A stretch of DNA of 64,000 bases. Origin: Squalus acanthias (lineage: Eukaryota). Under the pieces are notes generated by a model. That model worked only from the letters and a program-made list of their open reading frames with translations. It made no database searches and was not told where the DNA came from. The DNA is taken from positions 135,348,001 through 135,412,000 of the forward strand of contig CM059431.1 of NCBI GenBank assembly GCA_030390025.1. The letters are read 5' to 3'. Both the position numbers and the translations under genes were made by a program. Positions 7,291-61,350 of the stretch are shown here, one piece after another. Position 1 is the stretch's first letter; each line of letters begins with the position of its first letter.

Positions 7291-7879
7291 GCAGACTCCC
7301 ATCCAACAACCTCCCTCACTGGGAAGTGAAGAGAAATCAAACCTACTTGACAGAAATGCTACCTCTGCACCAATTTTTAACATTCAAACCACTACAAAGA
7401 TGATCTTTTTGCAATACACTTCTGTTTAATTTTGCCTGATTTAAAATAAAATCACTTTCTGTGTAAATATAATTAGTGCTAATGGCATCATGAGGTACTG
7501 AGCTATGACAGTATGAGAGCTGAATTAACCATGCACAAACAAAGCTGAAGTACCATGGACTAATGAGCAATATTAATTCTGTTTCCTCACTTTAATGTCT
7601 CCTTTATATTAAAGAGCCACTTCAAGTGGAACAACCTTAGAGCTGATGGTGCTGCACAATATGCCCCATTTATATTGCAGGGCAGCACTAGCCGCAATAG
7701 ACAAACACACTTCAGGCTCAATATTAACTGCCTCTGCCAGTGTAAAGGGGTGGTAGTGGCCTGAAAATGGTGTTGGGTCACTTACTGCCCCTTTTACACT
7801 GGCACTCCAGCCACTGCCATCTTTGGTAGGGTCCTATGTTCCTATGTCATCACTGTTCACTACTTAAACAATAATTAAA

Positions 7880-8012
7880 GCATCTGATGAAGGGTCATCG
7901 ACCTGAATCATTAACTCTGTTTCTCTCTCCACAGATGCTGCCTGACCTGCTGAGTATTTCCAGCATTTTCTGTTTTTATTTCAGATTTCCAGCATCCGCA
8001 GTATTTTGCTTT
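7880..8012 (+). repeat. Penelope-like pLTR fragment with decayed hammerhead core
   Basis: CTGATGA-AGGGTC-ATC-GACCT-GAAT (GAAA mutated), followed by CTCTCCACAGATGCTGCCTGACCTGCTGAG, a repeat recalled from elasmobranch genomes. Confidence 0.6.
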
Positions 8013-8284
8013 AATATTTAAAGCAGCCTGGGTAAGCCAGTTAATGAGTGAGCTGCCTAAGTATTGTCATAATACTTTGTGCTATCATCATGTCTATGTT
8101 TTAGACTCATCCTTGTTTGATATTTAATTCACCAAAATACATACTTTCCCTCTTATTACAGCTGAACTGCAATCTGACACAAATTTGCCATGCTTCTTTG
8201 CCATGTTAGCTAGTCCATCTCCTATGCTTGCAAAAATCTCTGGCATCATTCCATCAGGGCCAATCCTGTTCTGTCTCATAAGCC

Positions 8285-8890
8285 ATGATTTAACACTGGG
8301 TGAGTGGCACACATGGGGTAGGCAGGGTGAATGCCAGGACCGCCCAACACACTGACCTGAGGCCCGGGCTATTGTAACTCCCAGGCCTCATTTATATAGA
8401 CCAAGCCCAACGACCGCCCAAACCCAGCGGCAATGATGTGAGGCTGGCAGGTGGGAGCAGGTGAGCACAGTAGTCGGCCATCGGCAGGGACCCAGGGCAA
8501 TGGTTCCCGGCAAGGTAAGGGGGAGGGGGTCTGAGGCAATGGCGGGAAGCCTGGGCAGAGGTGATCCAAGGATTCCTTGTGGGGCCGGAAGAGTTACTTT
8601 TTCAGCCCTCTTCTGGGCCTGCTGCTCCTTGGGGCCGGGTTTTGCTGGCAAGGCTGGCACCTTGTTGCTGCAGGTTAAAATGTGGTTGGGTTCTGAATGA
8701 CATCAGCAGACCCCCACTTTTGAATCTGATTGAGGTCCTCACTTACCTCAGACGAGGGCCTCACGCTGCCTGAAATGCGCCTGTTAAAATGATGTGTGCA
8801 GCGTGGATTCGGTGAGTGCCACGCTGCCTATATTTTAACTCCCCATAAGACCCATTCTCGTCAGGCACAGAGGGTTGAAATCGGGGTTTT
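8285..8890. mobile_element. Probable Harbinger-type MITE
   Basis: GC-rich island in AT-rich DNA with degenerate inverted ends (GATTTTAAC.../...GTTGAAATC). Confidence 0.4.
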
Positions 8891-10273
8891 AATTTCACTT
8901 TTGTACTATTTAGAAATAATTGTTAGATAGCTGATAGAGTTCGGAGCTGCCAACTAAAGGCTTTAAATTTGAATTAAAACTTTGAGTACCAATTCAAAAT
9001 CCATTACCATCACAGGAAGCCTTTAACAGTTCTTAACAGGCTGACATTGATATTACATCATTTGTGCACATTAGTTTAAGGGGAGGTTAAGGGGGATAAG
9101 GTGGAATAGTATGGGGTCGTACATGATTGAATAGGATGCACATTTCATTTTCTAGAGCAGGGGCACTGAGATTTTGGGTTGTAGTTCTTACTAATTCCAG
9201 ACAGTCACAATCTATGAAGACTGACACATTTTGTGCATAGAGATTTTGAAATAAGTGGGACAGAAGCATTAACCAAGGACATGTTCGACTGTAAGAAGCA
9301 GAACGTTAGATGACACCAGGGATTGAAAGTGGATTTGAGAAAGCTAGGTGTTTGGGTCACAGTGCCTGTTATTCCAGACACTGTCAACAAGAAAGCCAAA
9401 GCAATTAGCGCATAGCCATGATTCCTAATAATGTAATAATAAGTAAATATGTCGGCTTTGGTCGGCACAGGTGGTCCAATTTCAGAATATGACACTGGCT
9501 TTCAAGACATGTAATGTAATTTTTAACTGACAAAATGGCTTACGGGGCTATTATCATTCTCAGTTGTTCATATTGAAACTAGTATTATGGTAACGTGCAC
9601 ATTACTGTGCCATATTTAATTATTGTCATCTTTCTTTATTTTGGGTGGTGTTTATGTTTCTGAATACTCTGTATTCATTAACAAGTTGAGGAACTGATTT
9701 GGAGGGAGAAAAGAACAAGGCAGTCAAAATTAATAAAGACGTTGGTATCTAAAATTGGCGCAATCAATGTCGAGCACTGATGCTGTCATGCAACAGTCAA
9801 GACCATATTGGCTACAGTATTGCCAAATTTGCAGGTATATGTGGATTTTAATGAACTTTTTAAACTTGTAGTTATTGAATATAGATGATTGTGAACACAA
9901 GGCTCAATCAGTGTCTTTGTGCAGATGATCAGTTCTGCACTCCCATACTTCAATGTTTTTGATAAGTTGCGCATTAAGCCGCCCAGCAGGATCTCCATTC
10001 ATTCTGTAACTGACACAGGATTCTTCAGTGTGTGATTGACAATGAGACATAACACAGTCTGAGACCCTCTTGGTGTAATGTTTTAAAATATCCTATTCCC
10101 AGTCCTTTTCAGGAGGTTCGGAAGACATGCCATAACAGGGCAGGGAGTTCTCTACGCTTGTACTAAACATCCAATTCTCTATTTTTGCAATTGATTTCTT
10201 TGCTAAGTCATTTGTACCAGTTCTAGCCTCATGAAACAACAGCTCAACATTTTTTTGAATTATAATTAATTTA

Positions 10274-39342: not shown

Positions 39343-40748
39343 GGGGGAGAAATTGGCCTCCTTTTCGCCTCCTGTTAGCGCCTCCAGGGGGCGTTAACGG
39401 GGCACTACCGGCTTTGCGACCGGGCGCAACGATAGTACCGACGCCCGCGAAATTGACGTGGAGGTTTGCGGCGGCGGTAACCACTAGCGCCACGCTCTCC
39501 TGCACCCGGAGATCATGACGTCATCCGGCTGCGCAGTGCCCCAGTAGCACCCTGGATCTGAACTTCGGTTCAGACCCCTGCAGCATCGCCAGGCGATAAC
39601 ACCAACAGCTGCAGGAGGCGTTGTTCGGGAGACTGGCCATTTGGGGAGCGGTATTTAAAGGTAAGGCTGCTTGTGTCAATGAAAAATTTGTTTTTACCCC
39701 TTAGGTTGTTTTTTCAACTTTTTCCTGTCAGAGTGCTTGGGGCTGATCGTCGTGGATTGTGGCTGCTGTTGGTGACGAGGGACATCAATTTAATGCAAAG
39801 CCTGCAGCAATGGCCCTTCCCGGCAGCGCTGCACCCGACCATGGTCAGCGCTGCACCCGACCATGGGCAGCGCTGCACCCGACCATGGGCAGCGCTGCAC
39901 CCGACCATGGGCAGCAATGGCCCTTCCCGGCAGCGCTGCACCCGACCATGGTCAGCGCTGCACCCGACCATGGGCAGCGCTGCACCCGACCATGGGCAGC
40001 GCTGCACCCGACCATGGGCAGCGCTGCACCCGACCATGGGCAGCAATGGCCCTTCCCGGCAGCGCTGCACCCGACCATGGGCAGCACTGCACTCGACCAT
40101 GGGCAGCGCTGCACTCGACCATGGGCAGCACTGCACTCGACCATGGGCAGCGCTGCACTCGACCATGGGCAGCGCTGCACCCGACCATGGGCAGCGCTGC
40201 ACTCGACCATGGGCAGCGCTGCACTCGACCATGGGCAGCAATGGCCCTTCCCGGCAGCGCTGCACCCGACCATGGGCAGCGCTGCACCCGACCATGGGCA
40301 GCGCTGCAACCGACCATGGGCAGCGCTGCACCCGACCATGGGCAGCGCTGCACCCGACCATGGGCAGCGCTGCACCCGACCATGGGCAGCGCTGCACCCG
40401 ACCATGGGCAGCGCTGCACCCGACCATGGGCAGCGCTGCACCCGACCATGGGCAGCGCTGCACCCGACCATGGGCAGCGCTGCACCCGACTATGGGCAGC
40501 GCTGCACCCGACCATGGGCAGCGCTGCACCCGACCATGGGCAGCGCTGCACCCGACCAAGGGCAGCGCTGCACCGCTACCGCCCCGCTTGCCGAACTTTA
40601 GCGCTCCAAGGGAAGTGGTAGCGCTTGATTTAGTGCTCCACTTCCTTCCTGGAGCGCTAAACCCGAAGTTCGCATTGGATTCATTGGCATAGCGCCTGGC
40701 ACTACTTTTTCGTTACCGCTAAACAGGACGATACTCAATTTCTCCCCC
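39343..40748 (+). mobile_element. Harbinger-family MITE expanded by an internal minisatellite
   Basis: 12-bp TIR GGGGGAGAAATT / AATTTCTCCCCC; TTAGCGCC motifs; antiparallel homology to 25045-25750; TSD not clean. Confidence 0.85.
39804..40573. repeat. 22-bp minisatellite GCAGCGCTGCACCCGACCATGG with a periodic 19-bp interrupt
   Basis: 31 full units in blocks of 4, 5, 8 and 14, each block led by GCAGCAATGGCCCTTCCCG (39804, 39911, 40040, 40235). Confidence 0.97.
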
Positions 40749-43090: not shown

Positions 43091-43590
43091 CAGGAACAGG
43101 GATACCTTGCTGCAGCTGTACAGGGCACTGGTGAGACCACACCTCGAGTACTGTGTACAGTTTTGGTCGCCTCATCTGAGGAAAGATGTTCTTGCCATGG
43201 AGGGGGTGCAGCGGCGATTCACCAGGCTGATACCAGGAATGGCGGGATTGACCTATGAGGAGAGACTATGTAGTTTAGGGATGTACACACTGGAGTTTAG
43301 AAGATTGAGAGGGGACCTCATAGAAGTGTATAAAATTCTGACAGGTCTAGACAGACGAGATGCAGAAGGAATGTTTCCCTTGGCGGGTGAGAACAGAACT
43401 AGAGGACATAATTTAAGGATAAGGGCTAAACCATTTAGGACAGAAATGAGGGGGAATTTCTTCACTCAGAGGGTGGTGAACCTGTGGAACTCATTGCCAC
43501 AGAGGGCAGTGTACGCCAGCTCATTAAATATATTTAAGAGGGAATTAGATGTATTTCTACAGGCAAAAGGGGTTAAGGGTTACGGAGAGA
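43091..43590 (+). repeat. 500-bp near-identical direct copy of 44644-45143 (internal CR1 segment)
   Basis: Only two substitutions noticed; lacks the CR1 3' UTR and tail. Confidence 0.9.
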
Positions 43591-43779: not shown

Positions 43780-45264
43780 TAAATCGTGCTTGACTAATCT
43801 ATTGGAATTTTTTGAGGGAGTAACTGGTAAAATAGATGGGGGAGAGCCAGTAGATGTGGTGTACCTGGACTTCCAAAAGGCCTTCGACAAGGTCCCACAT
43901 AAAAGATTAGCATGGAAAATTGAAGCTCATGGGATAAAGGGGAAAGTATTGACGTGGATAGAGAACTGGCTGTCAGATAGAAGTCATGATGCGGAGATGC
44001 CGGTGTTGGACTGGGGTGGACAAAATTGAGAGGTCGCACAACACCAGGTTATAGTCCAACAGTTTTATTTGAAATCACAAGCTTTCGGAGCTATCGATTG
44101 CTCCGAAAGCTTGTGATTTCAAATAAAACTGTTGGACTATAACCTGGTGTTGTGCGACCTCTCAATTTTGTCAGATAGAAAACAGAGAGTTGGAATAAAC
44201 GGCTCATTTTCTGAATGGCAGGCAGTAACAAGTGGGGTACCGCAGGGATCTGTCCTGGGTCCCCAGCTGTTCACAATTTACATTAATGACCTGGATCAGG
44301 GAGTCGGATGCAGCATTTCCAAATTTGCAGACGACACTAATCTAGGAGGGGGGGTGGGCTCAGAGGAGGAGACCAGGAAGCTCCAGAGCGATTTGGACAG
44401 ACTGGGTGATTGGGCGGATAAATGGCAGATGCACTATAATGTGGACAAGTGCGAAGTTATCCACCTTGGGTGCAGGAACGGGAGGGCAAATTATTATTTA
44501 AATGGCAATAAATTGGGAGAGGGGGAAGTACAGAGAGACCTGGGTGTTCTTGTACACCAGTCACTGAAGGCGAGCATGCAGGTGCAACAGGCGGTCAAGA
44601 AGGCAAACGGTATGCTGGCCTTCATAGCAAAAGGGTTGGAATACAGGAACAGGGATACCTTGCTGCAGCTGTACAGGGCACTGGTGAGACCACACCTCGA
44701 GTACTGTGTACAGTTTTGGTCGCCTCATCTGAGGAAAGATGTTCTTGCCATGGAGGGGGTGCAGCGGCGATTCACCAGGCTGATACCAGGAATGGCGGGA
44801 TTGACCTATGAGGAGAGACTATGTAGTTTAGGGATGTACACACTGGAGTTTAGAAGATTGAGAGGGGACCTCATAGAAGTGTATAAAATTCTGACAGGTC
44901 TAGACAGACTAGATGCAGAAGGAATGTTTCCCTTGGCGGGTGAGAACAGAACTAGAGGACATAATTTAAGGATAAGGGCTAAACCATTTAGGACAGAAAT
45001 GAGGGGGAATTTCTTCACTCAGAGGGTGGTGAACCTGTGGAACTCATTGCCACAGAGGGCAGTGTACGCCAGCTCATTAAATATATTTAAGAGGGAATTA
45101 GATATATTTCTACAGGCAAAAGGGGTTAAGGGTTACGGAGAGAAGGCGGGGACGGGATACTGAATTGGAGGATCAGCCATGATCTCATTAAATGGCGGAG
45201 CAGGCTCAAAGGGCCGGATGGCCTACTCCTGCTCCTATCTTCTATGTATCTATGTATCTATGTA
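43780..45264 (+). mobile_element. Young 5'-truncated CR1 LINE
   Basis: RT frame 43790-45163 is open apart from the hairpin insert; (TCTATGTA)n tail. Confidence 0.93.
43983..44168. mobile_element. Penelope-type palindromic short element (second copy)
   Basis: 73-bp perfect inverted arms; 12-bp TSD TGTCAGATAGAA (43971-43982, 44169-44180); nearly identical to the reverse complement of 24156-24372. Confidence 0.88.
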
Positions 45265-45631
45265 AACGAGGAGGTTGCTGGGAAATGGGTGGAGATAAAA
45301 ATAGATAAAGAGGAGGTACTAGACAGGCTAGCAATAATTGAAGTGGATAAGTCACCAGTCCGGATGGGATGCATTCTAAGTTGCTAAGGGAAGTAAGGTT
45401 ATAGATTGCGGAGGTGCTGGCCACAGTCTTCCAATCCTCCTTAGATACAGGGCTGGTGCCAAAGGACTGGATGATTGCAAATGTTACACGCCTGTTCAAA
45501 AAAGGGGAGAAGGATAAACCTGGCAATTACAGGCCAGTCAGTTTAACGTCGAAGATGGGGAAGCTATTAGAAACAATAATCTGGGGGTAAAATTAATAGC
45601 CACTTGGACATGCATGGACTATAAAGGAGAG

Positions 45632-46329
45632 CGGGTGGTCAGCACAGAGTATCTTAAATGGAGTGCACTTAAACAGAGTGTTAAACTTGGGAATTTGGAG
45701 AGAGTGGGAATTCGGAGCAGAGTGGGAAGGAGGTGTTGCTTTTTGCCTCCAATACTTGGAGTGCTTTGTGCTACAGGTAAATATTTAATTTCATTTACCT
45801 AGAACTTAAACTAGATCTGGTAATTAGTTAAAAACTAAACTGTAAGCTAAGTTAATTAAATGTTGTAGTGGTAGGGGACAGTATAGTCAGGGGGATAGAT
45901 ACTGTTCTCTGAAGCCGCGATTGGGAGTTCTGATGGCTGTGTTGACTTTCCGGTGCGAGGGTTAAGGATATCTCCTCACGGCTGGAGAAGAATTTGGAGT
46001 GGGAGGGGGAGATTCCAGTTGTCATGGTCCATGTAGGAACGACATAGGTAGAACTAGGAATGAGGTTCTGCTGAAAGAGTTTGAGGAGCTAGGGTCCAAA
46101 TTAAAAAGCAGAACCTCAAAGGTAATAATCTTTGGATTGTTACCTGAGCTACGCACAAATTGGCATAGGGACAAGCAGATTAGAGAGTTAAATGCGTGGC
46201 TCAAAGAATGGTGTGCGAGGAAGGGGTTTGATTCATGGGGCACTGGCACCAGTACTGGGGAAAGAGGGAGCTGTTCCGTTGGGACGGTCTCCACTTAAAC
46301 CAGGCTGGGACCAGTGTCCTGGCGAATCG
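45632..46329 (+). mobile_element. CR1 5' region with ORF1 SGNH esterase pseudogene
   Basis: VVVGDSIVRG, GARVKDI, NDIG, ELNAWLKEWC, DGLHLN motifs. Confidence 0.85.
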
Positions 46330-46613
46330 TAAGAACATAAGAATTAGGAGCAGGAGTAGGCCATACAGCTCCTCGAGCCTGCTCCTCCATTTTAGTTTCC
46401 TACAAACTTTCTTTATTCAAATTAATGGAGACCTTGAAACTAATGACTATTCTAGCTGTAAGGAAATACTAATTTGCTATTTGCCTCATAAACTAATGTT
46501 AAGCTAGCCTTAATTTCCCATCAACCTCTCTGTCTCTTCCCTCTCCATGTTCCAACATGTCCCATGTTCCAACATTTCCTACTTTTATTTTTTGTAATCT
46601 GCACCTCTTTTAC

Positions 46614-49261
46614 CTACCAGGGGCCATGATTCGCTTTCAGTGCCCTCGTTATCTCTCTATCTTTTCTGATATTTTCTATGTCTCTTATCAACTTCCTTAC
46701 ACAGCATAACGCAATGACCAGAATCCCTAAGGCTATTATCTGTGCTATCACCATTCCCATCTGGAACAGTCTAGCCCAAGGATGTAGTTCCACACTAGAG
46801 GTTACTTTCCACCATTCATGATTCCCAAGTCTCATGATTGCCTGTTCTGTCTCTCTATTTGTCTCCATCATTTGCACTATGTATTTCTGGGATGTCCTAG
46901 TTCGCTCAATTATGCCCTTTAAAGCCAGAGACAGGGGAGTTATATAGTGACCCATACGCGGAATGGCTCATAGAAACATAGAAAAATAGGAGCAGGAGTA
47001 GGCCATTCGGCCCTTCGAGCCTGCTCCGCCATTCAATATGATCATGGCTGATCCTCTATCTCAGTACCATATTCCCGCTCTCTCCCCATACCCCTTGATG
47101 CCTTTTGTGTCTAGAAATCAATCTATCTCCTTCTTCAATATATTCAGTGACTTGGCCTCCACAGCCTTCTGTGGTAGAGAATTCCACAGGTTCACCACCC
47201 TCTGAGTGAAGAAATTTCTCCTCATCTCAGTCCTAAATGTCCTACCCCGTATCCTGAGACTGTGACCCCTTGTTCTAGACCCCCCAGCCAGGGGAAACAT
47301 CCTCCCTGCATCCAGTCTGTCTAGCCCTGTCAGAATTTTATATGTTTCAATGAGATCCCCTCTCATTCTTCTAAAGTCTAGTGAATACAGGCCTAGTCGA
47401 CCCAATCTCTCCTCATACGACAGTCCTGCCGTCCCAGGAATCAGTCTGGTGAACTTTCGCTGCACTCCCTCTATGGCAAGTATATCCTTTCTTAGGTAAG
47501 GAGACCAAAACTGCACACAGTACTCCAGGTGTGGTCTCACCAAGGCCCTGTACAACTGTAGTAAGACATCCTTGCTCCTATACTCAAATCCTCTTGCAAT
47601 GAAGGCCAACATACCATTTGCCTTCCTAACTGCTTGCTGCACCTGCATGTTTGCTTTCAGTGACTGGTGTACAAGGACACCCAGGTCCCTTTGTACATCA
47701 GCATTTCCCAATCTATCACCATTTAAATAATACTCTACCTTTCTGTTTTTCCTACCGAAGTGGATAACTTCACATTTATCCACATTATACTGCATCTGCC
47801 ATGTATTTGCCCACTCACTCAACTTGTCTAAATCACCTTGAAGCCTCTTTGCATCCTCCTCTCAACTCACAATCCCACCTAGTTTTGTGTCGTCAGCAAA
47901 CTTGGAAATATTACATTTGGTTCCCTCATATTCCAGAGGCAGTTTCAGCTGCAGATAAGTGGCATTATGATGATCAATGTTTTAGCACCGATACAAGTGT
48001 TTCTCTTTGGAGTCAGACAAAACTGGTGTTCTAGTATGGGGCATCGGGTTGAACCTACGGTCGATATACACGGTATTAGTTTGCTCCTTGACCTATTTAC
48101 TTCTTCCAATCTGGCATTTTGGTGATTCTTTGTCGAGAATGAACCCACAAACTGGAACAGTCTGTTGATGGACGACATCACATCTACAAACCCACGTTGT
48201 CCCTTTCAGAGTGCAACACTCCATATCTGGTGTTATCCAAGTTCCTGCCTTCTTAATCAGATATTTTGGATATTCCTCATATGGATCGGACCTAACTCGG
48301 AGTCTTCCAACATTCCAGTCGATTCTACCCATACACCTTCCAAGGTTTCGTTTAATTTACATTTTTCCTTAACAAAGGCAAAACCAATACTACTGGTATA
48401 ATATCTTCATTTCTTTCCCCTTCCCTAGGGGCCAAAAAAGCCCCTATTTGCTGCATTACATCATAGTCCCATTCATTCTCTGAATTCTTCAAGTTGTTAA
48501 ACACCTTCGTATTTGTTTCTGATGAATAAACAGAGGCACCTCATGTCTCTTTATTTGGTCCATTCCTTTCTGGATTATGTTCATCACAAAAGCCGCATAC
48601 AGGTTCCACATATTACCTCTCGCTGTCTCCTGCCTTTCATTGGCCTCATTGTTATTATCTATTAACTGATTAATTATCTTTTTACTTTGTCCAATTATCT
48701 CACTAACGCCTCAGTAGATACTAAGGTGCTTTGATTTTCAACTAAATCACCTCCCCCTTCTTGGTTCATTTTGGATAAAATGTCTTTCAATTGCTTTCTC
48801 ATCACCACATCATGTTCCCACATTCCCTTTAGATTGGTTCGGTTCACTCCAGACAAACCTGCTCTTGCTCCTATACCCATCCATTCCATTAGCTCCCTCT
48901 TCATTTATTACCCTCCTTGTGCCTATCTTCCCTCCAGTCTGATTATTCTTCTAATCACTTACGCTTCTCTCCCTCCTTTTCCACTAAGGCTTGCAACATT
49001 CTATGCAACATATCTGTATAATTACAATGACAGAGTCTTTTGGATATATCCAATTTCATATTCAATAACACTGGTGCAATCTCAAAATGGACATCATTAT
49101 ATAGTACAGTCCTGGATTCGATTACTTCGAGTCTGTTTTTATTTGGGTTCAGTCATTGAGGTTGCCAGGTGTACATACTGGGTATGTTACACAGTTCCAT
49201 ATTCTCTCCGGTTGTTGTTTTGCGTGGTCGAGATCAGCAGTAGTACAATTACTATCCACAT
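46614..49261 (-). pseudogene. env: env pseudogene, class I fusion (F-like) glycoprotein, ~560 codons after removing the CR1 insert
   Basis: Signal peptide MWIVIVLLLIS after a TTTTATTTCAACAG acceptor; KR|ELMEWMGIGARAGLSGVN cleavage site/fusion peptide; heptads; Cys-rich PDMECCTLKGTTWVCRC; TM MGMVIAQIIALGILVIALCC; several stops and frameshifts. Confidence 0.75.
46973..47924 (-). mobile_element. CR1 LINE 3' fragment inserted in env
   Basis: ORF 47118-47822; (CATAGAAA)n tail; CTCATA at both junctions (46967-46972, 47925-47930). Confidence 0.93.
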
Positions 49262-50060
49262 CCTGTTCCTGTTGAAATAAAATCAAATGCAGCATTTATT
49301 CTTCATCTGGTTATCTGAGCTCTTCTTGTACAGTTTACACTGATCTCCATGATACCACACATTTTGTGGTTTCTTCCCTTGTTTCTGAATGGCCAATTTA
49401 AGATTTGTTTCTCCCAATTTGTCCATGACTTCACACAGACCTTCCCAATTAGCCTACCAGGCCCCACCTTTTAACATTTTTTTAAGCGTGACTTGATCAT
49501 CAATGAAGTAGTTTAATGCAACGTGATTGTCCCTGGTGGTGTAATTTTCCTGTTTCTATTTTACATCCTAAGTGGGGCATAAGCCCTGGAGAAACTTTAC
49601 TGTCCAATGCAATATTTTCACAACATCTTTAAAACAAAAATCAAACAAAGAAAAAACTTTCCCGATCAAACTTTTTTTCCCCCAAGTCTTTGTGGTTTGG
49701 AATCAATTACGATAGCATGTCTCGGACTTGCAATAACCAAATTAAGAAGACAATGCTTTGTAAACGTTCAAATTGATTTCAAACGCGACCACACATTTTT
49801 AATTTAAACTGCATAAAGCCATAGCATTTTTTTTTACTGTAATTCAATTAAAACAAAGTGCCTTGAGAGTTCAAATTCATTTTGCACCAGACACCATGGC
49901 AACTGTAACTTCAAGGCTGAAGCTTATCTTTTGTCAAACAAACTAGTCTACCTCCTGTCCCAGAGCTCGTCCGGATCGATTCCTTTGTGGTCCAGGTTTC
50001 ACTTCAGTCCGATATCGACAATTAACTCCCCGGTTTTCAGTAAAAAACTACAAGTCCAAG

Positions 50061-50077
50061 CCTGGCTAGGTTCACCA
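50061..50077 (-). promoter_or_regulatory. Primer-binding site, tRNA-Arg(ACG)-like
   Basis: Plus-strand CCTGGCTAGGTTCACCA resembles the vertebrate tRNA-Arg(ACG) 3' end CCTGGCTGGCTCGCCA (from memory); 1 nt from the LTR end. Confidence 0.65.
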
Positions 50078-50409
50078 ATGAAGTAAATGATGTTGGTAAA
50101 GAGACCCACGTTGTCTCTTTACTTGAGTAGTAATGAAAATAGTCATTGCTTCAGGTTGAATACCTTTGCTTCTTCCTTCAGCAGGCGAAGCAATTTACAA
50201 GCGAAGTAGATTGACAGACTGAGTACAATAGATGTAAGCATGCATCCTCACATTGTACTAAACTTTAAAACACAAAATGACTGTTTTTATATAATTCTGT
50301 GCCTGTCGTGAACTCGAATCCACCTCTTTTCCCTTGATTGGATTCCTTCTGTCACCTGACTTACCACTCCAGTACATTTCCATTACAGCCAGTCTAGCCC
50401 GAAGACTAA

Positions 50410-51050
50410 GGGGGAAAAGTTTGGTGGCGCCCCTTTTGGGGCACTAACGTCGCCGGGGCACTACAAGTGAATATCGCAGCGCTACATGCAACAGCACCAC
50501 GCGAGTCGGCACGTAGCGCCGCGTCATTGCAGGCCTCCCTCCCCTGATTAAAGGGGAGGGGCCTAGCGCTGTGTGCACCGGAGCCCTGCTGGACCCCCGG
50601 GGAGTGAGGTGCCATGAAAACAGCCCGGCTCTCAAGAGGAGTGCCGGGCTGAGCGGTCCTGGCTGGCACCCCGAAGAAAAAAGGGGAAGGGGGCAGGTGC
50701 TGGCAGTCGGCTCAAGAAAAATGGCCGCCCGACACCTGCCCATTAAGTAGCACCACCGCGGCTACAAAAACGCCACCCTGACCCTGTCGGACAAATGGTC
50801 CGGCGATAGGTCAGGGGGCACAACCCAAGTTTGCGGCTGGGGTGCGAGCGGGGCCGCTGCATACGGCGATGACGTCATTGCTGGCGGCGCAGCACCGCGG
50901 GGCGCTATTTGCTACCGCCGCCGCTAACCTCCCGCTGATTTTCGCGGGAGGAGTTAGCAGTGCCATGCCCGGGCGCTAGGGAATTTGTGCCGCATTAGTG
51001 GCCCCCAGGGGGTGCTAATGAGAGCTGCAAACTAACCCCATTGTCCCCCC
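50410..51050 (-). mobile_element. Harbinger-family MITE, antiparallel relative of 33932-34692
   Basis: TAA TSD (50407-50409, 51051-51053); ends GGGGGAAAAGTT / CATTGTCCCCCC. Confidence 0.85.
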
Positions 51051-51053
51051 TAA

Positions 51054-51874
51054 GCTTAATTATCGCCACCGACTGCAAACTTGACTTTTATCGCCCCTGG
51101 AGGTGATTGCAGCGCTAAATCAGGCGCTTCACACCTGTCTTAAGGCGCAAAGGCCGAGGAGCGAGGCGCTACCTCAGAGCGCTGGCGAAGCTCATGTAAT
51201 GTCAGTCAGCAATGGAACACACACACAATGCCACGGGCCAGTTCTTAAAGGGGATGGTTAATCTTGCTTTCCATCCACATCCTGCTCATTGCAGCCTTGA
51301 ATCTCGGCCTGGAGAGACCTGCACATCAAATCTGCTGGAAAGAACAATGGAGAGTACCAGGCAAAGAGCTCAGAGTGCAGCCCCCACAGTCTCTTCTAAA
51401 TCGATACAAGGAATGGCAAATCAAAATGAACCTGCAAAGTGCTGCTCAGTACCCAAAAGTCCTTCACACAACGTTGAATCTCTCCAGAAGTCTCTCCCTC
51501 TCTCAGAATGTGTAGTTCAAAAATGGCACCAACAATAAAAGGCAAGAAGCGGTCACCTTTAAATAGCGCTCCCCCTTTCCCTTCATGACTGCAGAACGCT
51601 CCCCTCAACCTGTCGTTGCTAGCGTCAGGCGGTAAGGCAGGGGGCGCCACTCAATATCAGCTCCGGGGCGATACCGGGGCGTTGCGCACTCGACTGACGT
51701 CACGACCTGCCGGTGCAGGAGATCGTGGCGGTAGTGTTTAGCGCCGCCGCAAAATGTCTAGTTAATTTCGCGAGCGGCGCAAACTTTGCCGCGCCTGGGC
51801 GCCAGATGCTTTGCGCCCCATTAGCGCCCTCTTAAGGCGCTAACGGGAGGCGCAACCAACTGAATTTTTCCCCC
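51054..51874 (-). mobile_element. Deletion derivative of the 53491-57622 Harbinger family
   Basis: Right end is the reverse complement of 53491-53570 (GGGGGAAAAATTCAGTTGGTTGCGCCTCCC..); left part matches the reverse complement of ~57450-57555; outermost ~70 bp of that end missing. Confidence 0.85.
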
Positions 51875-52067
51875 AATGTCTTTTGTTCAATTAACAGTGC
51901 TAACAAGCTTACACACACACTATCAATGGATTATTATGATGGTACACTATTGTGCCTAGCTCTATTAATTAGACAGAGACTTCACTTATCTTTGTTTTTA
52001 GCTTCCTCCAAATTTTCTTTATTCAAGTTAATGGAGACCTTGAAACTAATGACTATTCTAGCTATAA

Positions 52068-53205
52068 ACAACAACAACAAAAACTTGCATTTATATAGCG
52101 CCTTTAACAGAGCAAAACGTCCCAAGGCTCTTCACAGGAGTATTATAAGACAAAAAATTTGACACCGAGCCACATAAGGATAAATTAAGGCAGGTGACCA
52201 AAAGCTTGGTCAAAGAAGTAGGTTTTAAGGAGCGTCTTAAAGGAGGAAAGAGAGGTAGAGAAGCGGAGAGGTTTAGGCAGGGAATTCCAGAGCTTAGGGC
52301 CGAGGCAACAGAAGGCACGGCCACCAATAGTTGAACGATTATAATCAGAGATGCTCAAGAGGGCAGAATTAGAGGAGCGCAGATATCTCGGGGGGTTGTG
52401 GGGCTGGAGGAGATTACAGAGACAGGGAGGGACGAGGCCATGGAGGGATTTGAAAACAAGGATGAGAATTTTGAAAACGATGTGTTGCTTAACCAGGAGC
52501 CAATGTAGGTCAGCGAGCACAGGGGTGATGGGTGAATTGGACTTGGTGTGAGTTAGGACATGGGCAGCCGAGTTTTGGATGACCTCAAGTTTACGTAGGG
52601 TAGAACGTGGGAGGCCAGCCAGGAGTGCGTTGAAATAGGCAAGTCTAAAGGTAACAAAGGCGTTGATTAGGGTGTCAGCAGCAGATGAGCTGAGGCAAGG
52701 GCGGAGATGAGCGATGTTACAGAGGTGGAAATAGGCGGCCTTAGTTATGCCACGGATATGTGGTCGGAAGCTCATTTCAGGGTCAAATATGACAGCAAGT
52801 TTGCGAACAGTGTGGTTCAGCATCAGACAGATGTTAGGGAGAGGAATGGAGTCAGTGGATAGGGAACGGAGTTTGTGACGGGGACCGAAAACAATGGCTT
52901 TGGTCTTCCCAATGTTTAATTGGAGAAAATTTCGGCTCATCCAGAACTGGATGTCAGACATACAGTCTGACAATTTAGAGACCGTGGAGGGGTTGAGAGA
53001 AGAGGTAGTGAGGTAGAGCCGGGTGTCATCAGCGTACATGTGGAAACTGACGCTGTGTTTTCGGATGATGTCACCTAGGGGCAGCACGTAGATGAGAAAT
53101 AGGAGGGGGTTAAGGATAGATCCTTGGGGGTCACCAGAGGTAATGATGTGAGAGCGGGAAGAGAAGTCATTGCAGGTGATTCTCTGGCTACGATTAGATA
53201 GATAA
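52068..53205 (-). mobile_element. L2 LINE 3' portion
   Basis: ORF 52185-53087: MLPLGDIIRKH..FHMYADDTRLY, NFLQLNIGKT, ITPVLADLHWL, GPKLWNSLP; (TTG)n tail. Confidence 0.93.
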
Positions 53206-53991
53206 GAATAGATAAGAGGGAGTTAGGAGGTAAATTTAAAAATAGGACCTCAAAGGTAGTAATCTCAGGATTGCTACCAGTGCCATGTGCTAGGGGGAGT
53301 GTTTGCTAGTGCTGTTGGGGAGGGTTTAAACTAAAATGGCAGGGGGTTGGGAACCTGTGCAGGGAGACAGAAGAAAGGGAAGCAAGGCTAGAAGCAAAAG
53401 ACAGGAAGGAGAAAGCAAAAATGGAAGGCAGAGAAATCAAGGGTGTAAATCAAACAGGGCTACAGTAAATAATAATTCTAAAAGGACTAAGGGGTAAAAA
53501 TTCACTTGGTTGCGCCTCCCATTAGCGCCTTAAGAGGGCGCTAATGGGGCGTTAAGCCGCTAACGCCCGGGCGCAGCGATGTTTGCGCCGCTCGAGAACT
53601 TAACTTGAGATTGTGCGGCGGCGCTAAAACTTACCGCTGCGACCACCTGCGCGCGCAGATTGTGATGTCATTCCATAGTGCAACGCCCTTGGGGCGCCCC
53701 GGAGCGGAAATTGAGTGGCGCCCCCTGCCTTACTGCCTGGCGCTTCCAACGACCGGAAGACTGGAACGCTATCAATCGGTGTGGGGCTGGGGGGGGCGCT
53801 ATTTAAAGGGGGCCTCTTCCTGTGGTCGACATTTATGCACCACTCGTTCTGAGAGAGAGAGAGAGATTCGGAGAGAGAGAGAGAGAGACTTCTACATTGA
53901 CTCAATGCTTTGTGAGGTAGTTTTGCCTATTCATCCTAACTTTGTTGCTACTTTAGTTGCTGTACCTCATTACTTTTCTGGCAAAGAGAAT

Positions 53992-55021
53992 ATGGGGGCT
54001 GCAATGATTGGGGGCGTCGTCCTGCTCCAGCTGAATCGGAGGATACCGAGACGCAGACAGAGAGTGGCAATGATGGCCAGACGGAGGAGGGCCATCAGGC
54101 GCATGTACAGGAGAGCTTACCCTCCCAGGGTATATCGTGAACAGCTCTCCTACATCCATATGTCCAAGGAGCTGTGTTTGCGAAGGCTGCGATTCAGCAA
54201 GGAGGTGGTCACTGAGCTCTGCCACCTGCTGCAGCCAGATCTGCAGCCTCAGCTGAGGTCCAGGACGTCTCTGTCGGTGGCAGTGAAGGTCACAGTGGCT
54301 TTGAACTTCTACGCCACTGGCTCATTCCAAGCTGCTGTTGGGGACCTCGCCAATATCTCCCAGTTTGCGGTGCATCGCTGCATCCGGCAGGTCACCAATG
54401 CCCTCTTCAGAAGGAGACGAGACTTCATCTCTTTCCCTATGACCCCAGACAAGCAGCGTGACCGTGCTCTGGGCTTTGCGAGGGTAGCGGGCTTCCCCAT
54501 GGTGCAGGGCGCCATTGACTGCACGCATGTGGCTTTGCGTGCTCCGCGAGAGAATGCAGAGGAATTCAGGAACAGAAAGGGGTTCCATTCCTTGAATGTG
54601 CAGTTGGTCTGTGACCACAGACAGGTGATACTCGCTGTCAATGCCCACTATCCGGGCAGCTGCCACGATGCTTTCATCCTGCGCCAGACTACTGTGGCAG
54701 AAGTTTTCGAGGCACCGCATCAGCCAGTTGGTTGGCTTCTCGGGGACAAGGGGTACGCATTGAGCACCTGGCTGATGACACCGCTCCGTACGCCAAACAC
54801 CCCTGCTGAGCTGCGGTACAATGAAAGCCATCAAGCAACCAGGAACATTATTGAGCGCACAATCGGCATGCTGAAACAACGGTTCCGCTGTCTGGACCAT
54901 TCCGGAGGAGCCCTGCAGTACTCGCCTGAGCAAGTTTCGAACTTCGTAGTCGTGTGCTGCATGTTGCACAACATGGCAATCCTCAGGACCCAGCCAATGC
55001 CACCAGGCCTTGTAGCACCAC

Positions 55022-55052
<31 letters not shown>

Positions 55053-55152
55053 CGAGGACGATGATCATCAGCAGCACCAAGGCAGGAGGGCGGCCCACAA
55101 TGGTCAAACTGCAAGGGCCGTCCGTCAACGACTAATAGCAAGCCGCTTCTAG
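53992..55152 (+). CDS. Harbinger DDE transposase (HARBI1-like, 386 aa), intact
   Basis: Uninterrupted frame from MGAAMIGG (MGA start shared with other copies); GAIDCTH, NRKGFHSLNVQLVCD, PGSCHDAFIL, LLGDKGY, RNIIERTIGMLKQRFRCL, CCMLHN. Confidence 0.95.
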
Positions 55153-55446
55153 GGCCCCTGCCATTGCTACAAACACTAATCAACCCAGCACGCAACCCCT
55201 AAGCCGGCCAAGGCACCAATAATTCCAACCACCAGCCATGTATATTTTGAATACAGAAACTTATTTATTTTACAAACTCTGTGTGTGTCAATTCCTCATG
55301 ACAAACTCATAGAAATAAACACAAAAAAACAGTCAATAACATAACTGGTTCTCACAACCTGGAGATAATGTCCAAAACACTAAACAAAAGTTGGACCATG
55401 AACCTCGGCCTTTAATAAAAAAATGACCAGCATTTTGTCACACCTC

Positions 55447-57264
55447 CTACTTTTTGCCCTTCGAGGGTGATCTCCTTCCCTTGCGCACTTCCCCCCTTCT
55501 AACCCTACTGCTCCTCCGTAATGGGACCTCAGTGGCTGCAGCAAGGCTGGTGGAAGGCTGCTGCTCGTCAGACCCTGACACTGCAGATGCCCCTGAAGGA
55601 CGGCCTCGACCACTTCTGGGCCTGGAGGGCCCGGCTGCAGACTGCACCAACTCTGCATGGGCGGCAGCAGTCTGTCCTACAGGCGGTGGCAAGTGCAGTG
55701 GAGAAGTGACAGTGTTGGCAGCAGGAATGCTGTCATCGTGAGAGAGGCCAGCAACTCCCTGCTCGCCCGACACACTGGCACTCCCACGGGGCAGCACTTC
55801 AGCATCCGGAGCAATCTGCCGGAGAACAGATTGCTGGCCTGCTGCGGCGCGGTGACAGCCCCGGGGACATGTGCACGAACCATCGAGGTTGGCAGCAGTC
55901 TGTGCTCGCGTGGCCTCCATCTGAGTCTGTATGAGAGCAGTCAGAGGTGGGATCATGGCAGCCAGTGACTGAATTGCAGCACTAAGCGTTAGTGTGGCAT
56001 CCGCCTGTGCTACAGCGAAGTGCTCCACACTCCTTGCCAGTGACTCAATGCATTCGGGCACCCTTCCCACTGCACCCATGAGCTCAGTGTGCATGCCCAC
56101 CGCCTGGGTGTTCATTTCTGCAATCAGCCACGCCTCCTCTGCGTCCATTGCAGTAGGAGTGTCTGGCATACTCTCCCTCTGGGGAGAAGGCCCCCGTTCT
56201 TCCCTACCCCCCCCCATGGCGTTGCTGCAGCCCGCTGGGTCCTTGAGCTTCACCATCATCAGCCCCTTCCCCCCTGCTCCCCTCCGGGGAAGGCGTGTTC
56301 CCAGTGTGGGCATGGGCTTCCTCGGGAGAGGGTGGCACTGATGCTCTGGCTTCCTCTTCCTCCTCGGCTGCAGCATCACTCCCAGTGGCAGCTTCAGGGC
56401 CCGTCTCCTCAGCTGGTGAATCACCATCTGAAAGCAGGGAGGTACAAGAGTGGCTTTAGCGTGAGGACAGGGTGGCAGTAAGGGAGGAATAAGTGCAGCG
56501 AGTTAGCAAGTTGGATTGAAAGTGTCAAAGGCTGGTGTTGTGAGGGACAAGTGGAAGGACAGAGGACAAAAAGGTGATGACCTTACCATTGCTGTCCACA
56601 ACGGGGTCGGCGTCTCCAGTGGCGACGGGACCGATCACCCGGCTTGCCACAATCCTGTGGACGCGCTCCTCCAGATCGCTGAGGGGTTGCAGCTGAAGCC
56701 GCCCTCCACCTGTCCGTTGCTGCTGTCTCCTATTATGAGCCAGCTTAGCCTGCAAGTAAAAGGACAGCATCTGAGTAAATATACAGCCATGGTCTTGCCT
56801 GATGTGCCTCCCATAGGTGAATAGCCCTTACTGTATACAGCCATGGTCTTGCCTGATGTGCCTCCCATAGGTGAATAGCCCTTACTGTATGCAAAGTGTG
56901 GAATGTGTGTGTGTGTTTGATGAAAGGGCCATAGGTGTTGGATGAGTGTTGTGCATTGGGGTTTTAAGACCCTCTGGCCATAGAGTGAGGTTGAGATGGA
57001 GGGATGGAGAGGTATTGAGAAAAAGCCACTCACCCTGACGACCCGAGTGAGGTCGTTGAACTTTTTGTGGCATTGAGTCCTGGGCACCATGCTCCTGGAG
57101 GAGACGCTCTGAGCCACCTCCCTCCACACTCTTCTGAACTCGCGTGGCAAAGGCCTCCTGCCACTCTCAGGGAACAGCATACATCGTCTGCGCTCCACTG
57201 CGTCAACCAGAGCATCCAAGGCCCGCTCGGTGAAGCGATGAGCGCGTTCTCTCACCCTCTCCAT
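55447..57264 (-). CDS. Harbinger Myb/SANT-like DNA-binding protein, 3 exons (57264-57034, 56749-56587, 56427-55447), one apparent frameshift
   Basis: RFTERALDALVDAV..VWREVAQSV..RTQCHKKFNDL; GT-AG introns with matching phases 0 and 1; G9 run at 56207-56215 shifts the frame. Confidence 0.85.
56780..56890. repeat. Perfect 54-bp tandem duplication in Myb intron 1
   Basis: 56780-56833 equals 56834-56887. Confidence 0.95.
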
Positions 57265-60200
57265 GCTTGGCAGCAAAATGGATTCACAGGTCTCTCCAGG
57301 CTGAGATTCAAGGCTGCAATGAGCAGGGTGTGGCTGTGGAGCAAGTGGCCCCCCCCGCTTTAAGAAGTGTCCGGCGCCAGTGTGTCTGTGTTCCCTCGCT
57401 AACTGGCAGCAGCTGCGCTGCGCTCGCGCGCTGAGTTAGCGCCTCACTCCTTGTCCTTTGCGCCTTAAGACAGGTGTGCAGGGCCTGCTTTAGCGCTCCA
57501 CTCACCTCCCGGGGCGGTAAAAGTGAAGTTTCCTGTCAGTGCCGATAATTAGCGCCAGGCGCTAATATTTGCGTCCGGACGATATTTGCGCCCCAAATGG
57601 GGCGCGACCTAATTTCTACCCCTAAGAGTGTTAAAAAAACAAGCCTGAAGGCTTTGTGTCTTAATGCGAGGAGCATTCATAATAAGGTGGATGAATTAGC
57701 TGCGCAAATAGATGTAAATGGATATGATATAATTGGGATTACGGAGACATGGCTCCAGGGTGACCAAGGCTGGGAATTCAACATCCAGGGGTATTCAATA
57801 TTCAGGGAGGACAGGCAAAAAGGAAAAGGAGGTGGGGTAGCATTGCTGGTTAAAGAGGAGATTAACACAATAGTAAGGAAGGATATTAGCTCTGATGATG
57901 TGGAATCTGTATGGGTAGAGCTGAGAAAAACAAGGGGCAGAAAACATTAGTGGGAGTTGTATACAGACCCCCAAACAGTAATGCTGAGGTTGGGGATAGC
58001 ATTAAACGGGAACTTAGGGACGCAAGCAATAAGGGCACAGCAGTTATCATGGGTGACTTTAATCTACATATAGGTTGGGCTAACCAAGTTAGTAACAATA
58101 CTGTGGAGGAGGAATTCCTAGAGTGTATACGGGATGGTTTCCTGGACCAATATGTCAAGGAACCAACTAGAGATCAGGCCATCTTAGACTGGGTATTATG
58201 TAATGAGAAAGGATTAATTTGCAATCTTGTTGTGTGAGGCCCCTTGGGGAGGAGCGATCATAATATGATAGAATTCTTCATTAAGATTGAGAGTGAAGTA
58301 GTAGTTGACTCAGAGACTAGGGTCCTGAATTTAAATAAAGGAAACTACGATGATATGAGGCGCGAGTTGGCTAGGATGGATTGGGGAACGTTACTTAAAG
58401 GGTTGACGGTGGATAGGCAATGGCAAACATTTAAAGATCGCATGGATGAACTACAGAATTTGTTCATCCCTGTTTGGCATAAAAATAAAACAAAAAAGGT
58501 GACTCAACCGTGGCTAACAAGGGAAATTAGGGATAGCATAAGATCCAAGGAGAAGACATATAAATTGGCCAGAAAAAGCAGCAAACCTGAGGATTGGGAG
58601 CAGTTTAGGATCCAGCAAAGGAGGACAAAGGGATTAATTAAGAAGGGGAACATAGAATATGAGAGTAAGCTTGCAGGGAACATAAAAACTGACTGTAAAA
58701 GCTTCTATAGATATGTGAAGAGAAAAAGATTGGTGAAGTCAAGCGTAGGTCCCGTGCAGTCAGAATCAGGGGAATTTATAATGGGGAACAAAGAAATGGC
58801 AGACCAATTAAATACATACTTTGGTTCTGTCTTCACAAAGGAGGACACAAATAACCTCCCAGAGATGTCGGGTAACATAGGGTCTAATGAGAGGGAGGAA
58901 TTGAATGAAATCAGTATTTGTAGGGAAATTGTGTTAGGGAAATTGATGGGATTGAAGGCTGATAAATCCCCAGGGCCTGATAATCTATATCCTAGGGTAC
59001 TTAAGGAAGTGGCCCTAGAAATAGTAGATGCATTGCTGGTCATCTTCCAAAATTCGATAGACTCTGGAATAGTTCCCATGGATTGGAGGGTAGCTAATGT
59101 AACCCCAATATTTAAAAAAGGTGGTAGTGGGGAAAATGCTAGAGTCCATTATAAAAGATGTAATAGCAGAGCACTTGGAAAACAGTGACAGGATCGGACA
59201 AAGTCAACATGGATTTATAAAAGGTAAATTATGCTTGACTAAGCTACTGGAATTTTTTGAGGATGTAACTGGTAAGATAGATAAGGGAGAACCAGTGGAT
59301 GTGGTGTATCTGGACTTTCAGAAGGCTTTCAATAAGTTCCTGCATCAGAGATTAGTGTGCAAAGTTAAAGCACGTGGGATTGGGGGTAAGGTACTGACTT
59401 GGATAGAGAACTGGTTGGCAGACAGGAAGCAAAAAGTTGGAATAAACAGGTCTTTTTCCGAGTGGCAGGCAGTGACTAGTGGGGTACCGCAGGGATCGGT
59501 GCTAGGACCCCAGCTATTCACAATATATATTAATCATCTAGATGAGGGAACTAGATGTAATATTTCCAAGTTTGCAGACGCCTGGGTGGGCGTGTGTGCT
59601 GTGAGGAGGATGCAGAGAAACTCCAGTATGATTTGGACAGGTTGGGTGATTGGGCAGATGCATGGCAGATGCAGTATAATGTGGATAAATGCGAGGTTAT
59701 CCACTTTGGTGGCAAAAACAGGAAGACAGATTATTATCTGAACGGCAATAGATTGGGAAAAGGGGAAGTGCAACGAGATGTGTGAGTCCTTATGCACCAG
59801 TCGCTGAAGGTAAGCATGCAGGTGCAGCAGGCGGTTAAGAAGGCAAATGGTATTTTGGCCTTCATAGCGAGAGGATTCGAGTACAGGAGCAAGGATGTCT
59901 TGCTGCAGCTGTACAAGGCCTTGGTGAGACCACACCTTGAGTATTGTGTGCAGTTTTGGTCGCCTTATCTGAGGAAGGATGTTCTTGCCATGGAGGGAGT
60001 GCAGCGAAGATTTACCAGACTGGTACCTGGGATGGCAGGAATGACGTATGAAGAGAGATTGGGTTGATTAGGCTTATATTCGCTAGAGTTTAGAAGAATG
60101 AGAGGGGATCTCATTGAAACTTATAAAATTCTAACAGGACTAGACAGACTAGATGCAGGAAGGATGTTTCCGATGGCGGGGGAGTCCAGAACCAGGGGTC

Positions 60201-60499: not shown

Positions 60500-61350
60500 A
60501 AGAATGTCAGCTAGCATGGGAGCCAGAATCGGAAGTTGGGTGGTCAGCAGCTTGTAGAGGAAGTTTGGCCCGGTGGTGACTTTCTTCTATTTAGTTTTGG
60601 ACTCCCCCACAAGTTCAGCTCAGGGTTAAACCGGGCACCAAAGATGCAAATTGTTAGGTTTATAACAAGCAATCTGGAGGTGGGATGCAATGGAAGACAA
60701 AAATACAAAGTTTCTGAGGGGTGACCAAAAGGTTTGCTTTTGTCTTGCTAATATTGAGCTGGAGAAATTTTCAGCTCATTCATTAATTGATGTTGGACAG
60801 GTAATTGAACAGCACAGTGGAAGTCTTGGAGTTGATGGTGGTGGTGGAGAGTTANNNNNNNNNNNNNNNNNNNNNNNNNNNNNNNNNNNNNNNNNNNNNN
60901 NNNNNNNNNNNNNNNNNNNNNNNNNNNNNNNNNNNNNNNNNNNNNNNNNNNNNNNNNNNNNNNNNNNNNNNNNNNNNNNNNNNNNNNNNNNNNNNNNNNN
61001 NNNNNNNNNNNNNNNNNNNNNNNNNNNNNNNNNNNNNNNNNNNNNNNNNNNNNNAGCATTGGGTATTATTAGCATACGTATGGGAGCTGAACCCATGATT
61101 AGGGATGATGTTGCTGAGTCCAAGCATGGAAACTTGGGGCCATGCTAGAGGTGACCATACAGGCCTAGGATTTGGTGGTACCACAGAAGTGGATCATGGA
61201 GTAAAGGTAATGGAGCAGGGTATTTGGTTGACTATGTTGGATGGTTTATGTGGACTGGGCAGAAGCTGGACTAAAGGGAGTGATTAGAGAAGTGGAGACA
61301 GAGTTGGGTGGTAACAACACGTGAGAACTTTAGAGAGGATGGGGATGTGC
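60500..61350 (-). mobile_element. Old L2 fragment spanning the gap
   Basis: LSNIIPNHGFSSHTYANNTQ resembles the L2 YADDTQ motif; weakly colinear with 52700-53100. Confidence 0.6.
60855..61054. other. Assembly gap (200 N)
   Basis: Run of N. Confidence 1.

Follow-up and report, generated by a model that had tools for sequence, protein, structure and literature searches.

A decayed, env-only LTR element in Squalus acanthias with a likely F-type envelope and intact relatives in galeomorph sharks

INTRODUCTION

The envelope (Env) protein of foamy viruses has an F core in common with the fusion (F) proteins of paramyxoviruses and pneumoviruses (PMC11468914), and the Env of lokiretroviruses is similar to PF00523 (PMC7947760). 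Lokiretroviruses themselves are defined by reverse transcriptase (RT), which places them, with Odin, as sister to the sampled retroviruses, and by a tether with RNase H (RH) and a CGIN1-like integrase (IN); the origin of F-like retroviral Env was left open by Wang and Han, who set out four scenarios (PMC7947760). Endogenous retroviruses (ERVs) of the snakehead retrovirus (SnRV) clade, which ranges from fish to birds (PMC12193657), have been published for the elephant shark as CmiERV lineage I (PMC4422223). Here we describe a locus within 64,000 nucleotides of Squalus acanthias DNA (contig CM059431.1, positions 135,348,001 to 135,412,000; "the window", numbered from its first letter), where an endogenous long terminal repeat (LTR) element with an F-like env had been predicted at 46614-49261 and assigned to a lokiretrovirus-like lineage. 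We read the locus as a decayed, env-only LTR element with an F-type env that originated in the SnRV clade rather than among lokiretroviruses; taken as a whole, we consider this reading moderately probable.

RESULTS

A decayed env-only provirus

Three-frame translation of 46300-50400 recovered, on the minus strand and in the order given, all of the motifs quoted in the original prediction. Without its insert, a long interspersed nuclear element (LINE), env measures about 1,690 nt or about 560 codons (1,687 nt with approximate junctions). It opens at 49261 with a signal-peptide-like hydrophobic start (mean Kyte-Doolittle hydropathy [KD] of 3.4 over 10 amino acids [aa]), and a short N-terminal subunit of about 122 codons leads up to KR followed by ELMEWMGIG at about 48896. 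Downstream, the predicted order was likewise found: heptads, VVLVLPLL, a Cys block (48281-48096), a second heptad, a transmembrane (TM) segment (KD 2.9 at about 46754) and a stop at 46614. CX6-7CC and the immunosuppressive domain (ISD), the hallmarks of gamma/epsilon-type (syncytin-like) Env, are both missing from the window env: no such pattern occurs in any of the three minus frames, in line with the original prediction. The remnant, 49261-46614, now consists of nine pieces in changing frames, with at least seven switches and with in-frame stops between them, and only KR is left of the furin-type site. An LTR element is backed by a direct repeat of 72 bp (46390-46461 and 51996-52067) that is 93% identical and scores 119, whereas the highest of 100 shuffles scores 30; the element reaches beyond 46614-49261, to about 52067.

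Between the LTR remnants we detected neither gag nor pol, and about 800 nt separate the primer-binding site (PBS) from env. Pfam was run on 92 frames, comprising 90 of the 108 window open reading frames (ORFs) of at least 100 aa and one stop-read minus frame from each of two leader stretches; five more of the 108 ORFs were scanned separately, and 13 lay outside the Pfam scan. No protease, RNase H or integrase domain was found in the 92 frames, the RVT_1, endonuclease, DDE and Myb domains all lie elsewhere in the window, and the one minus frame scanned of each leader stretch was without a match. The Pol of an SnRV-like genome described below (L003) had no tblastn match in the window at E 0.01, and its Gag had no credible one. 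A "gag stub" considered at 49500-49320 was unsupported, and Rfam returned 0 matches on 45500-53500. We conclude that the region is a decayed, env-only provirus interrupted by a LINE.

Intact relatives in sharks

One window frame, with X at its stops, served as the query in a full HMMER scan of 1.84 billion representatives, which gave two matches: P0002 (phmmer E=2.5e-25) and P0003 (E=1e-4). P0002 is GCC29952.1 of Chiloscyllium punctatum, annotated as Ig-like domain-containing, and a search with it led to P0005 (XP_072333160.1, Scyliorhinus torazame) and P0006 (XP_067889054.1, Heterodontus francisci). The hosts of these three shark ORFs represent three galeomorph orders (horn, cat and bamboo sharks). 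All seven window pieces tested matched P0005 in order, with 0 of 100 shuffles reaching the score of each, and the pieces found by tblastn are 24-53% identical to it. Homology between the window env and the shark ORFs runs in order from the N-terminal subunit to the TM segment, with the same type of fusion peptide and the same Cys block. The shark ORFs are open, 739-754 aa long, with an intact R-X-K/R-R site and an N-terminal head of about 170-190 aa annotated as Ig-like, whereas the window copy is broken and has only about 37 codons ahead of the part common to the shark ORFs. The head (about 170 aa) was not detectable in 49130-53500, where 43 of 50 shuffles scored as high; weak matches of 49369-49164 to it were not above chance.

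P0003 and P0004 are intact Logan proteins of 749 aa whose head is a weak match to V-set (Pfam E=0.045) and which lack an R-X-K/R-R site; P0003 is tied to the shark ORF at E=9e-48. A word-based protein search with the Cys fragment yielded relatives among 0 of 2 candidates, and the same type of search with P0002 and with profile A4 returned only two shark clusters, and no lokiretrovirus Env, among about 7,900 and 7,999 scored candidates. Scans for env relatives in IMG/VR and in metagenomes (13 of 64 parts covered) found none. PBS-pattern scans produced 124 loci, none with env homology (tblastn E 0.01) and only L003/L004 with pol similarity. No relative that bears pol came out of these scans.

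Parts of the stretch are present in sequencing runs of six organisms from six studies, none of them recorded as RNA. In three DNA-type runs from three organisms, contigs at 80% likeness covered every bin; at 49076, to take one position, 6, 15 and 16 contigs show one difference. Several distinct env contigs per organism point to a multi-copy family common to several species, with the proviso that summed contig depth is not copy number. Among the contigs listed, none bridged the LINE insertion. One run of a further organism, which we guess to be RNA, has a 694-nt contig over 48065-48435 (Cys block) and also covers 46639-46832 (TM region); lacking controls, it does not count as expression.

Evidence for an F-type fusion protein

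The short-then-long subunit order, the two heptads and the Cys-rich ectodomain of the window env are those of paramyxovirus and pneumovirus F and of foamy virus Env (PMC11468914). F of paramyxoviruses and pneumoviruses requires a separate attachment protein, whereas the window element has none. Using residues 185-720 of P0002, the nearest Atlas cluster was "envelope protein" (PF00523 21%, Baculo_F 11%) at 0.95, with 219 of 256 features common; a Gypsy/Baculo_F cluster (0.94) and then 12 F0 clusters (0.94) followed, and the top 10 family matches all fall in one clan, the calibration of Atlas for parts of proteins being unmeasured. An 87-aa window fragment gave no usable Atlas match. The CXXC, CX6-7CC and ISD patterns are all missing from 4 of 4 relatives. 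A Foldseek check on two AlphaFold models returned PDB lists made up mostly of pneumovirus and paramyxovirus F and foamy Env, the best PDB match being foamy Env 8rm1 (E=1.8e-4).

Several results pull the other way. Both models were poor, with pLDDT values of 35 and 40 and TM-scores below 0.2. The BFVD lists were mixed, and walleye epsilonretrovirus Env and chuvirus glycoproteins also ranked high in them. Pfam matched neither PF00523 nor any other fusion family in seven env fragments and the intact relatives. Sequence searches of PDB found nothing significant, only antibody V domains for the head (E 0.05-1), and a wide VIA-align search was uninformative, returning generic helical bundles with a best Z of 8.9. 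The predicted F-type layout stands by its subunit order and by the Atlas features of the intact relative, while the structure models are too poor to serve as proof. We conclude that the product of the window env was likely a fusion protein of the F type (class Ib).

Probable affinity to the SnRV clade

A primer-site scan of IMG/VR yielded one retroviral genome of 10,688 nt (L003/L004), which we take, from its features, to be snakehead retrovirus. A PBS-like motif of the window element (50061-50077, minus strand), 1 nt behind the ...CA of the LTR, matches the L004 PBS at 14 of 16 positions with one gap; it is the best site in 49262-50400, with 0 of 300 shuffles as good, and is presumably an SnRV-type tRNA-Arg site. 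The three lokiretrovirus PBSs seen (Bsp, Sri and one next to the Sme entries) begin TGGTGCCCCGT, and the window PBS differs from them; the type of PBS is a trait that supports, rather than one given as defining, membership of lokiretroviruses. For Env, the C-terminal half of the SnRV-like protein is probably homologous to the shark family through P0003, which matches L004 Env at z=9.8 (0 of 200 shuffles); P0006 does so at z=3.7 (1 of 200). Seven cysteines and the basic cleavage site align across P0006, P0002, P0003 and L004 Env (P0003 being without R-X-K/R-R), and the shark ORFs and L004 Env have in common a GLxExxGxG-type fusion-peptide start, of which P0003 has only GL and G. In contrast, the fusion peptides in the 8 of 23 lokiretrovirus Env entries compared start with F(L/I)xG (most of them) or AVFG, unlike those of the shark ORF family. 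In L004 itself, the C-terminal half of the Env encoded at 6131-9532 aligns with F-type Env in its cysteines and cleavage site; L004 Env and the Foldseek rank of walleye epsilonretrovirus Env hint at a broader spread of the F core in the retroviruses of fish.

The original prediction went from an F-like Env to a loki-like lineage. This step fails, because foamy Env has the F core and SnRV-like Env is probably homologous through the bridge P0003: F-likeness is not exclusive to lokiretroviruses, and the PBS and the relatives' fusion peptide are closer to the SnRV-like genome. Lokiretrovirus (lokiortervirus) Env does resemble the window env in its F-type layout, its size and, by eye, its Cys-block pattern (PMC7947760, PMC9040795). 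The traits listed for it (signal peptide, RXKR site, fusion peptide, coiled coil, TM) occur in order in the window env, with the site reduced to KR, and are not loki-specific. The lokiretrovirus PBS and fusion peptide differ from those of the window and shark family, and RT, tether/RH and IN, by which lokiretroviruses are defined, have no counterpart in the window element. We conclude that the element probably derives from the SnRV clade rather than from lokiretroviruses.

A number of observations count against this assignment. A site in a miniature inverted-repeat transposable element (MITE) within 49262-52100 outscores the proposed PBS (12 versus 10). P0002 and P0005 were not significantly similar to L004 Env (19 and 13 of 200 shuffles), and the in-place match of each of the seven window pieces to it was unconvincing, its score being reached in 3-98 of 100 shuffles. 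With L004 Env, hhalign gave a probability of 7% (E=0.005), and hmmsearch gave 3.6 bits, the best shuffle 3.1. Judged by eye, the Cys block of the window is nearer to lokiretrovirus Env than to L004 Env. The window env begins at 49261 with a signal-like stretch of its own, whereas in L003 a short hydrophobic ORF and donor-like site (180-226) lie upstream of gag; the L003 env frame, at 1,134 aa, includes a long N-terminal part and shows no significant direct likeness to the window env. In SnRV itself, we presume, the env start and signal peptide lie upstream of gag. Finally, the lineage is argued from PBS and Env, which are exchangeable between lineages, without RT.

Alternative explanations

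The element could instead belong to a true lokiretrovirus lineage of cartilaginous fish, overlooked by RT screens as pol-bearing copies decayed or were absent. Such a lineage would account for the layout (signal peptide, short subunit, basic site, fusion peptide, coiled coil and TM in about 560 aa, like loki Env), for a Cys block and a "RIP" motif that match loki Env by eye, and for the window env having its own signal peptide; the alternative LTR ends, TGTTGG...CCAACA, are those of Loki-Bsp, and non-autonomous loki elements exist in zebrafish. Against it, a lokiretrovirus screen found 0 of 6 chondrichthyan genomes positive, S. torazame and C. punctatum included (PMC7947760); as the original prediction had it, cartilaginous fish are not among the reported hosts. 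No Arg-type PBS occurs at loki LTRs in the part of the supplement examined, and both the three loki PBSs and the loki fusion peptides compared above depart from the window and shark family. We regard a lokiretrovirus origin as unlikely. An origin in another deep retroviral lineage (foamy-like or unclassified), or in an env-carrying Ty3/Gypsy element, with the F-type env acquired independently, is distinctly unlikely too. Foamy Env 8rm1 at the head of the PDB matches and the Gypsy/Baculo_F cluster in second place in Atlas speak for it, as does the wide occurrence of F-type env in invertebrate errantiviruses (10.1101/2023.10.26.564294). Against it, the same source reports no vertebrate elements homologous to its invertebrate errantivirus set. 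Foamy Env, moreover, has an internal receptor-binding domain and a long leader peptide (PMC11468914), neither of which is seen in the window env, and fish foamy-like ERVs use mostly Lys PBSs.

That the best, and nearly the sole, protein relative is a host-annotated gene raises the thought of a processed or duplicated pseudogene of a conserved shark gene, with no provirus involved. An identity of only 24-53% per piece argues against this, as do the paired LTR remnants, PBS and purine tract, the several distinct contigs that cover env in three organisms, and the failure to detect the roughly 170-aa head. We consider a pseudogene very improbable.

A candidate domesticated gene in galeomorph sharks

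Overall identity among P0002, P0005 and P0006 is 85-88%; by region, it is 89-93% for the F1 ectodomain, 82-83% for the head and 66-75% for the TM and tail. The head and tail have changed more than the ectodomain (p=4e-6 to 0.045), and all 19 cysteines and the R-X-K/R-R site are kept in all three ORFs. When neutral evolution was simulated with substitutions only, at a divergence matched to theirs, the three frames all stayed open in 0 of 400 trials. Together with the open frames in three orders, this makes selection on the shark ORF clear. The same constraint would be expected of a circulating virus that had recently spread among sharks. Each species has one database record for the ORF, which is only a hint of a single locus.

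A 2026 chondrichthyan screen describes syncytin-like Env as captured retroviral env ORFs in sharks, which is what we propose for the shark ORF (10.64898/2026.05.06.723177). Its queries were syncytins, and a candidate had to show ISD and CX6-7C(C) motifs, a requirement because of which the shark ORF family could not have passed it; in the portion of its text available, paramyxo, loki, snakehead and foamy have 0 mentions (10.64898/2026.05.06.723177). We found no description of GCC29952.1, XP_072333160.1 or XP_067889054.1 in literature covered mostly as titles and the starts of abstracts, with subscription papers and bioRxiv supplements outside it. The same env lineage likely left one domesticated, still-open candidate gene in galeomorph sharks. 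As to its identity, we lean slightly towards a domesticated F-type env with an Ig-like head, putatively kept whole ever since horn, cat and bamboo sharks diverged. The provirus would then be its viral cousin without a head, and would link the gene to a retrovirus lineage of SnRV-like type.

Anatomy of the element and its surroundings

All parts of the element lie on the minus strand. The remnant of the 3' LTR, the start of U3, occupies 46390-46523; 72 bp of it pair with 51996-52067, and the remainder is lost under a LINE tail at 46330-46391. The LTR start would be the TG at 46523, directly behind a polypurine-tract-like run of 22 nt (46525-46546; 21 of 22 purines) whose role is suggested by its position; a start at 46574 is the alternative. 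At 46545-46578 there is a 17-nt tandem duplication with TGTTGG, which puts this alternative LTR start behind a second purine-rich run. The 3' piece of env (46614-46967) holds the second heptad, the TM segment, a short tail and the stop, and is 35-36% identical to aa 634-738 of P0005 (0 of 100 shuffles). The 5' part (47925-49261), in eight frame pieces, holds the signal peptide, short N-terminal subunit, KR remnant, fusion peptide, heptad and Cys-rich domain. Between them lies the 5'-truncated LINE (46967-47924), with a 6-nt target duplication and 78-84% similarity to other LINE copies of the window; its contig depth in the sequencing runs was very high, and we label it as CR1 type.

The leader of about 800 nt (49262-50060) is without recognisable gag or pol and has, just before the env ATG, a pyrimidine run and AG that read as a possible splice acceptor. 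Within it, a segment at 49504-49913 is bounded by TGAAGT...ACTTCA and at its end repeats the end of the 5' LTR (13 of 14 nt). Contig depth in the bins over this segment is higher than over env and LTR, by several-fold up to more than 20-fold, and no target duplication is seen; the segment is possibly a nested solo LTR or another repeat. The 5' LTR (50079-52067) is in pieces (about 50079-50401, 51355-51478 and 51875-52067), with a TATA-like box at 50283-50293; three repeat insertions interrupt it, and an L2-type LINE truncates it from 52068 on. Pairing establishes only the 72-bp U3 piece, and the other pieces are assigned by their position. Dating by the LTRs was dropped, since five differences in 72 bp (Kimura two-parameter distance 0.074) are too little sequence.

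The MITEs inside the 5' LTR are related to a Harbinger-type element at 53545-57435 that looks fairly young. Its plus-strand frame (53545-55152) is an open Harbinger-type DDE transposase of 535 codons (Pfam DDE_Tnp_4, E=3e-39) and faces a Myb/SANT-containing minus-strand frame at 55447-57435. Elsewhere, the window has a GC-rich tandem array of about 900 bp with a 22-nt unit (39715-40629) and an assembly gap of 200 N (60855-61054). Near-identical copies of a LINE 3' segment at 43091-43590 and 44644-45143, 1,553 bp apart and 100% identical over 300 nt, are either a recent duplication or an assembly artefact.

DISCUSSION

By analogy with class I fusion biology, the active element would have expressed its Env from a spliced message that used the acceptor-like site before the ATG. 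After loss of the signal peptide, cleavage of the precursor at the basic site would yield a short N-terminal subunit and a long, membrane-anchored one, whose new N-terminus would insert into the target membrane as the two heptads zip into a six-helix bundle. Without an attachment gene, receptor binding would fall to Env itself, in the relatives perhaps through the Ig-like head. A copy without gag and pol may have moved with helper proteins, or it may have lost both genes after insertion; LINEs and MITEs would later have split the provirus.

The window copy itself is a dead fossil, and what is new is the link from it to a candidate for an ancient domesticated F-type env. The finding weakens F-like Env as a hallmark of lokiretroviruses. 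Should the F core prove common to the SnRV-type lineage, foamy viruses and lokiretroviruses, the ancestral fusogen of retroviruses may have been of the F type, with the TM of the gamma and HIV type as a later replacement. We know of no F-type env capture in vertebrates. The shark ORF offers a concrete candidate for a fusogen, or a restriction factor that blocks receptors, captured by its host very long ago; live-bearing lineages are many in this group. If a domesticated F-type env is confirmed, it would to our knowledge be the first case of a class Ib fusogen captured by a vertebrate and would rank with the oldest env captures, of a kind invisible to syncytin-type screens.

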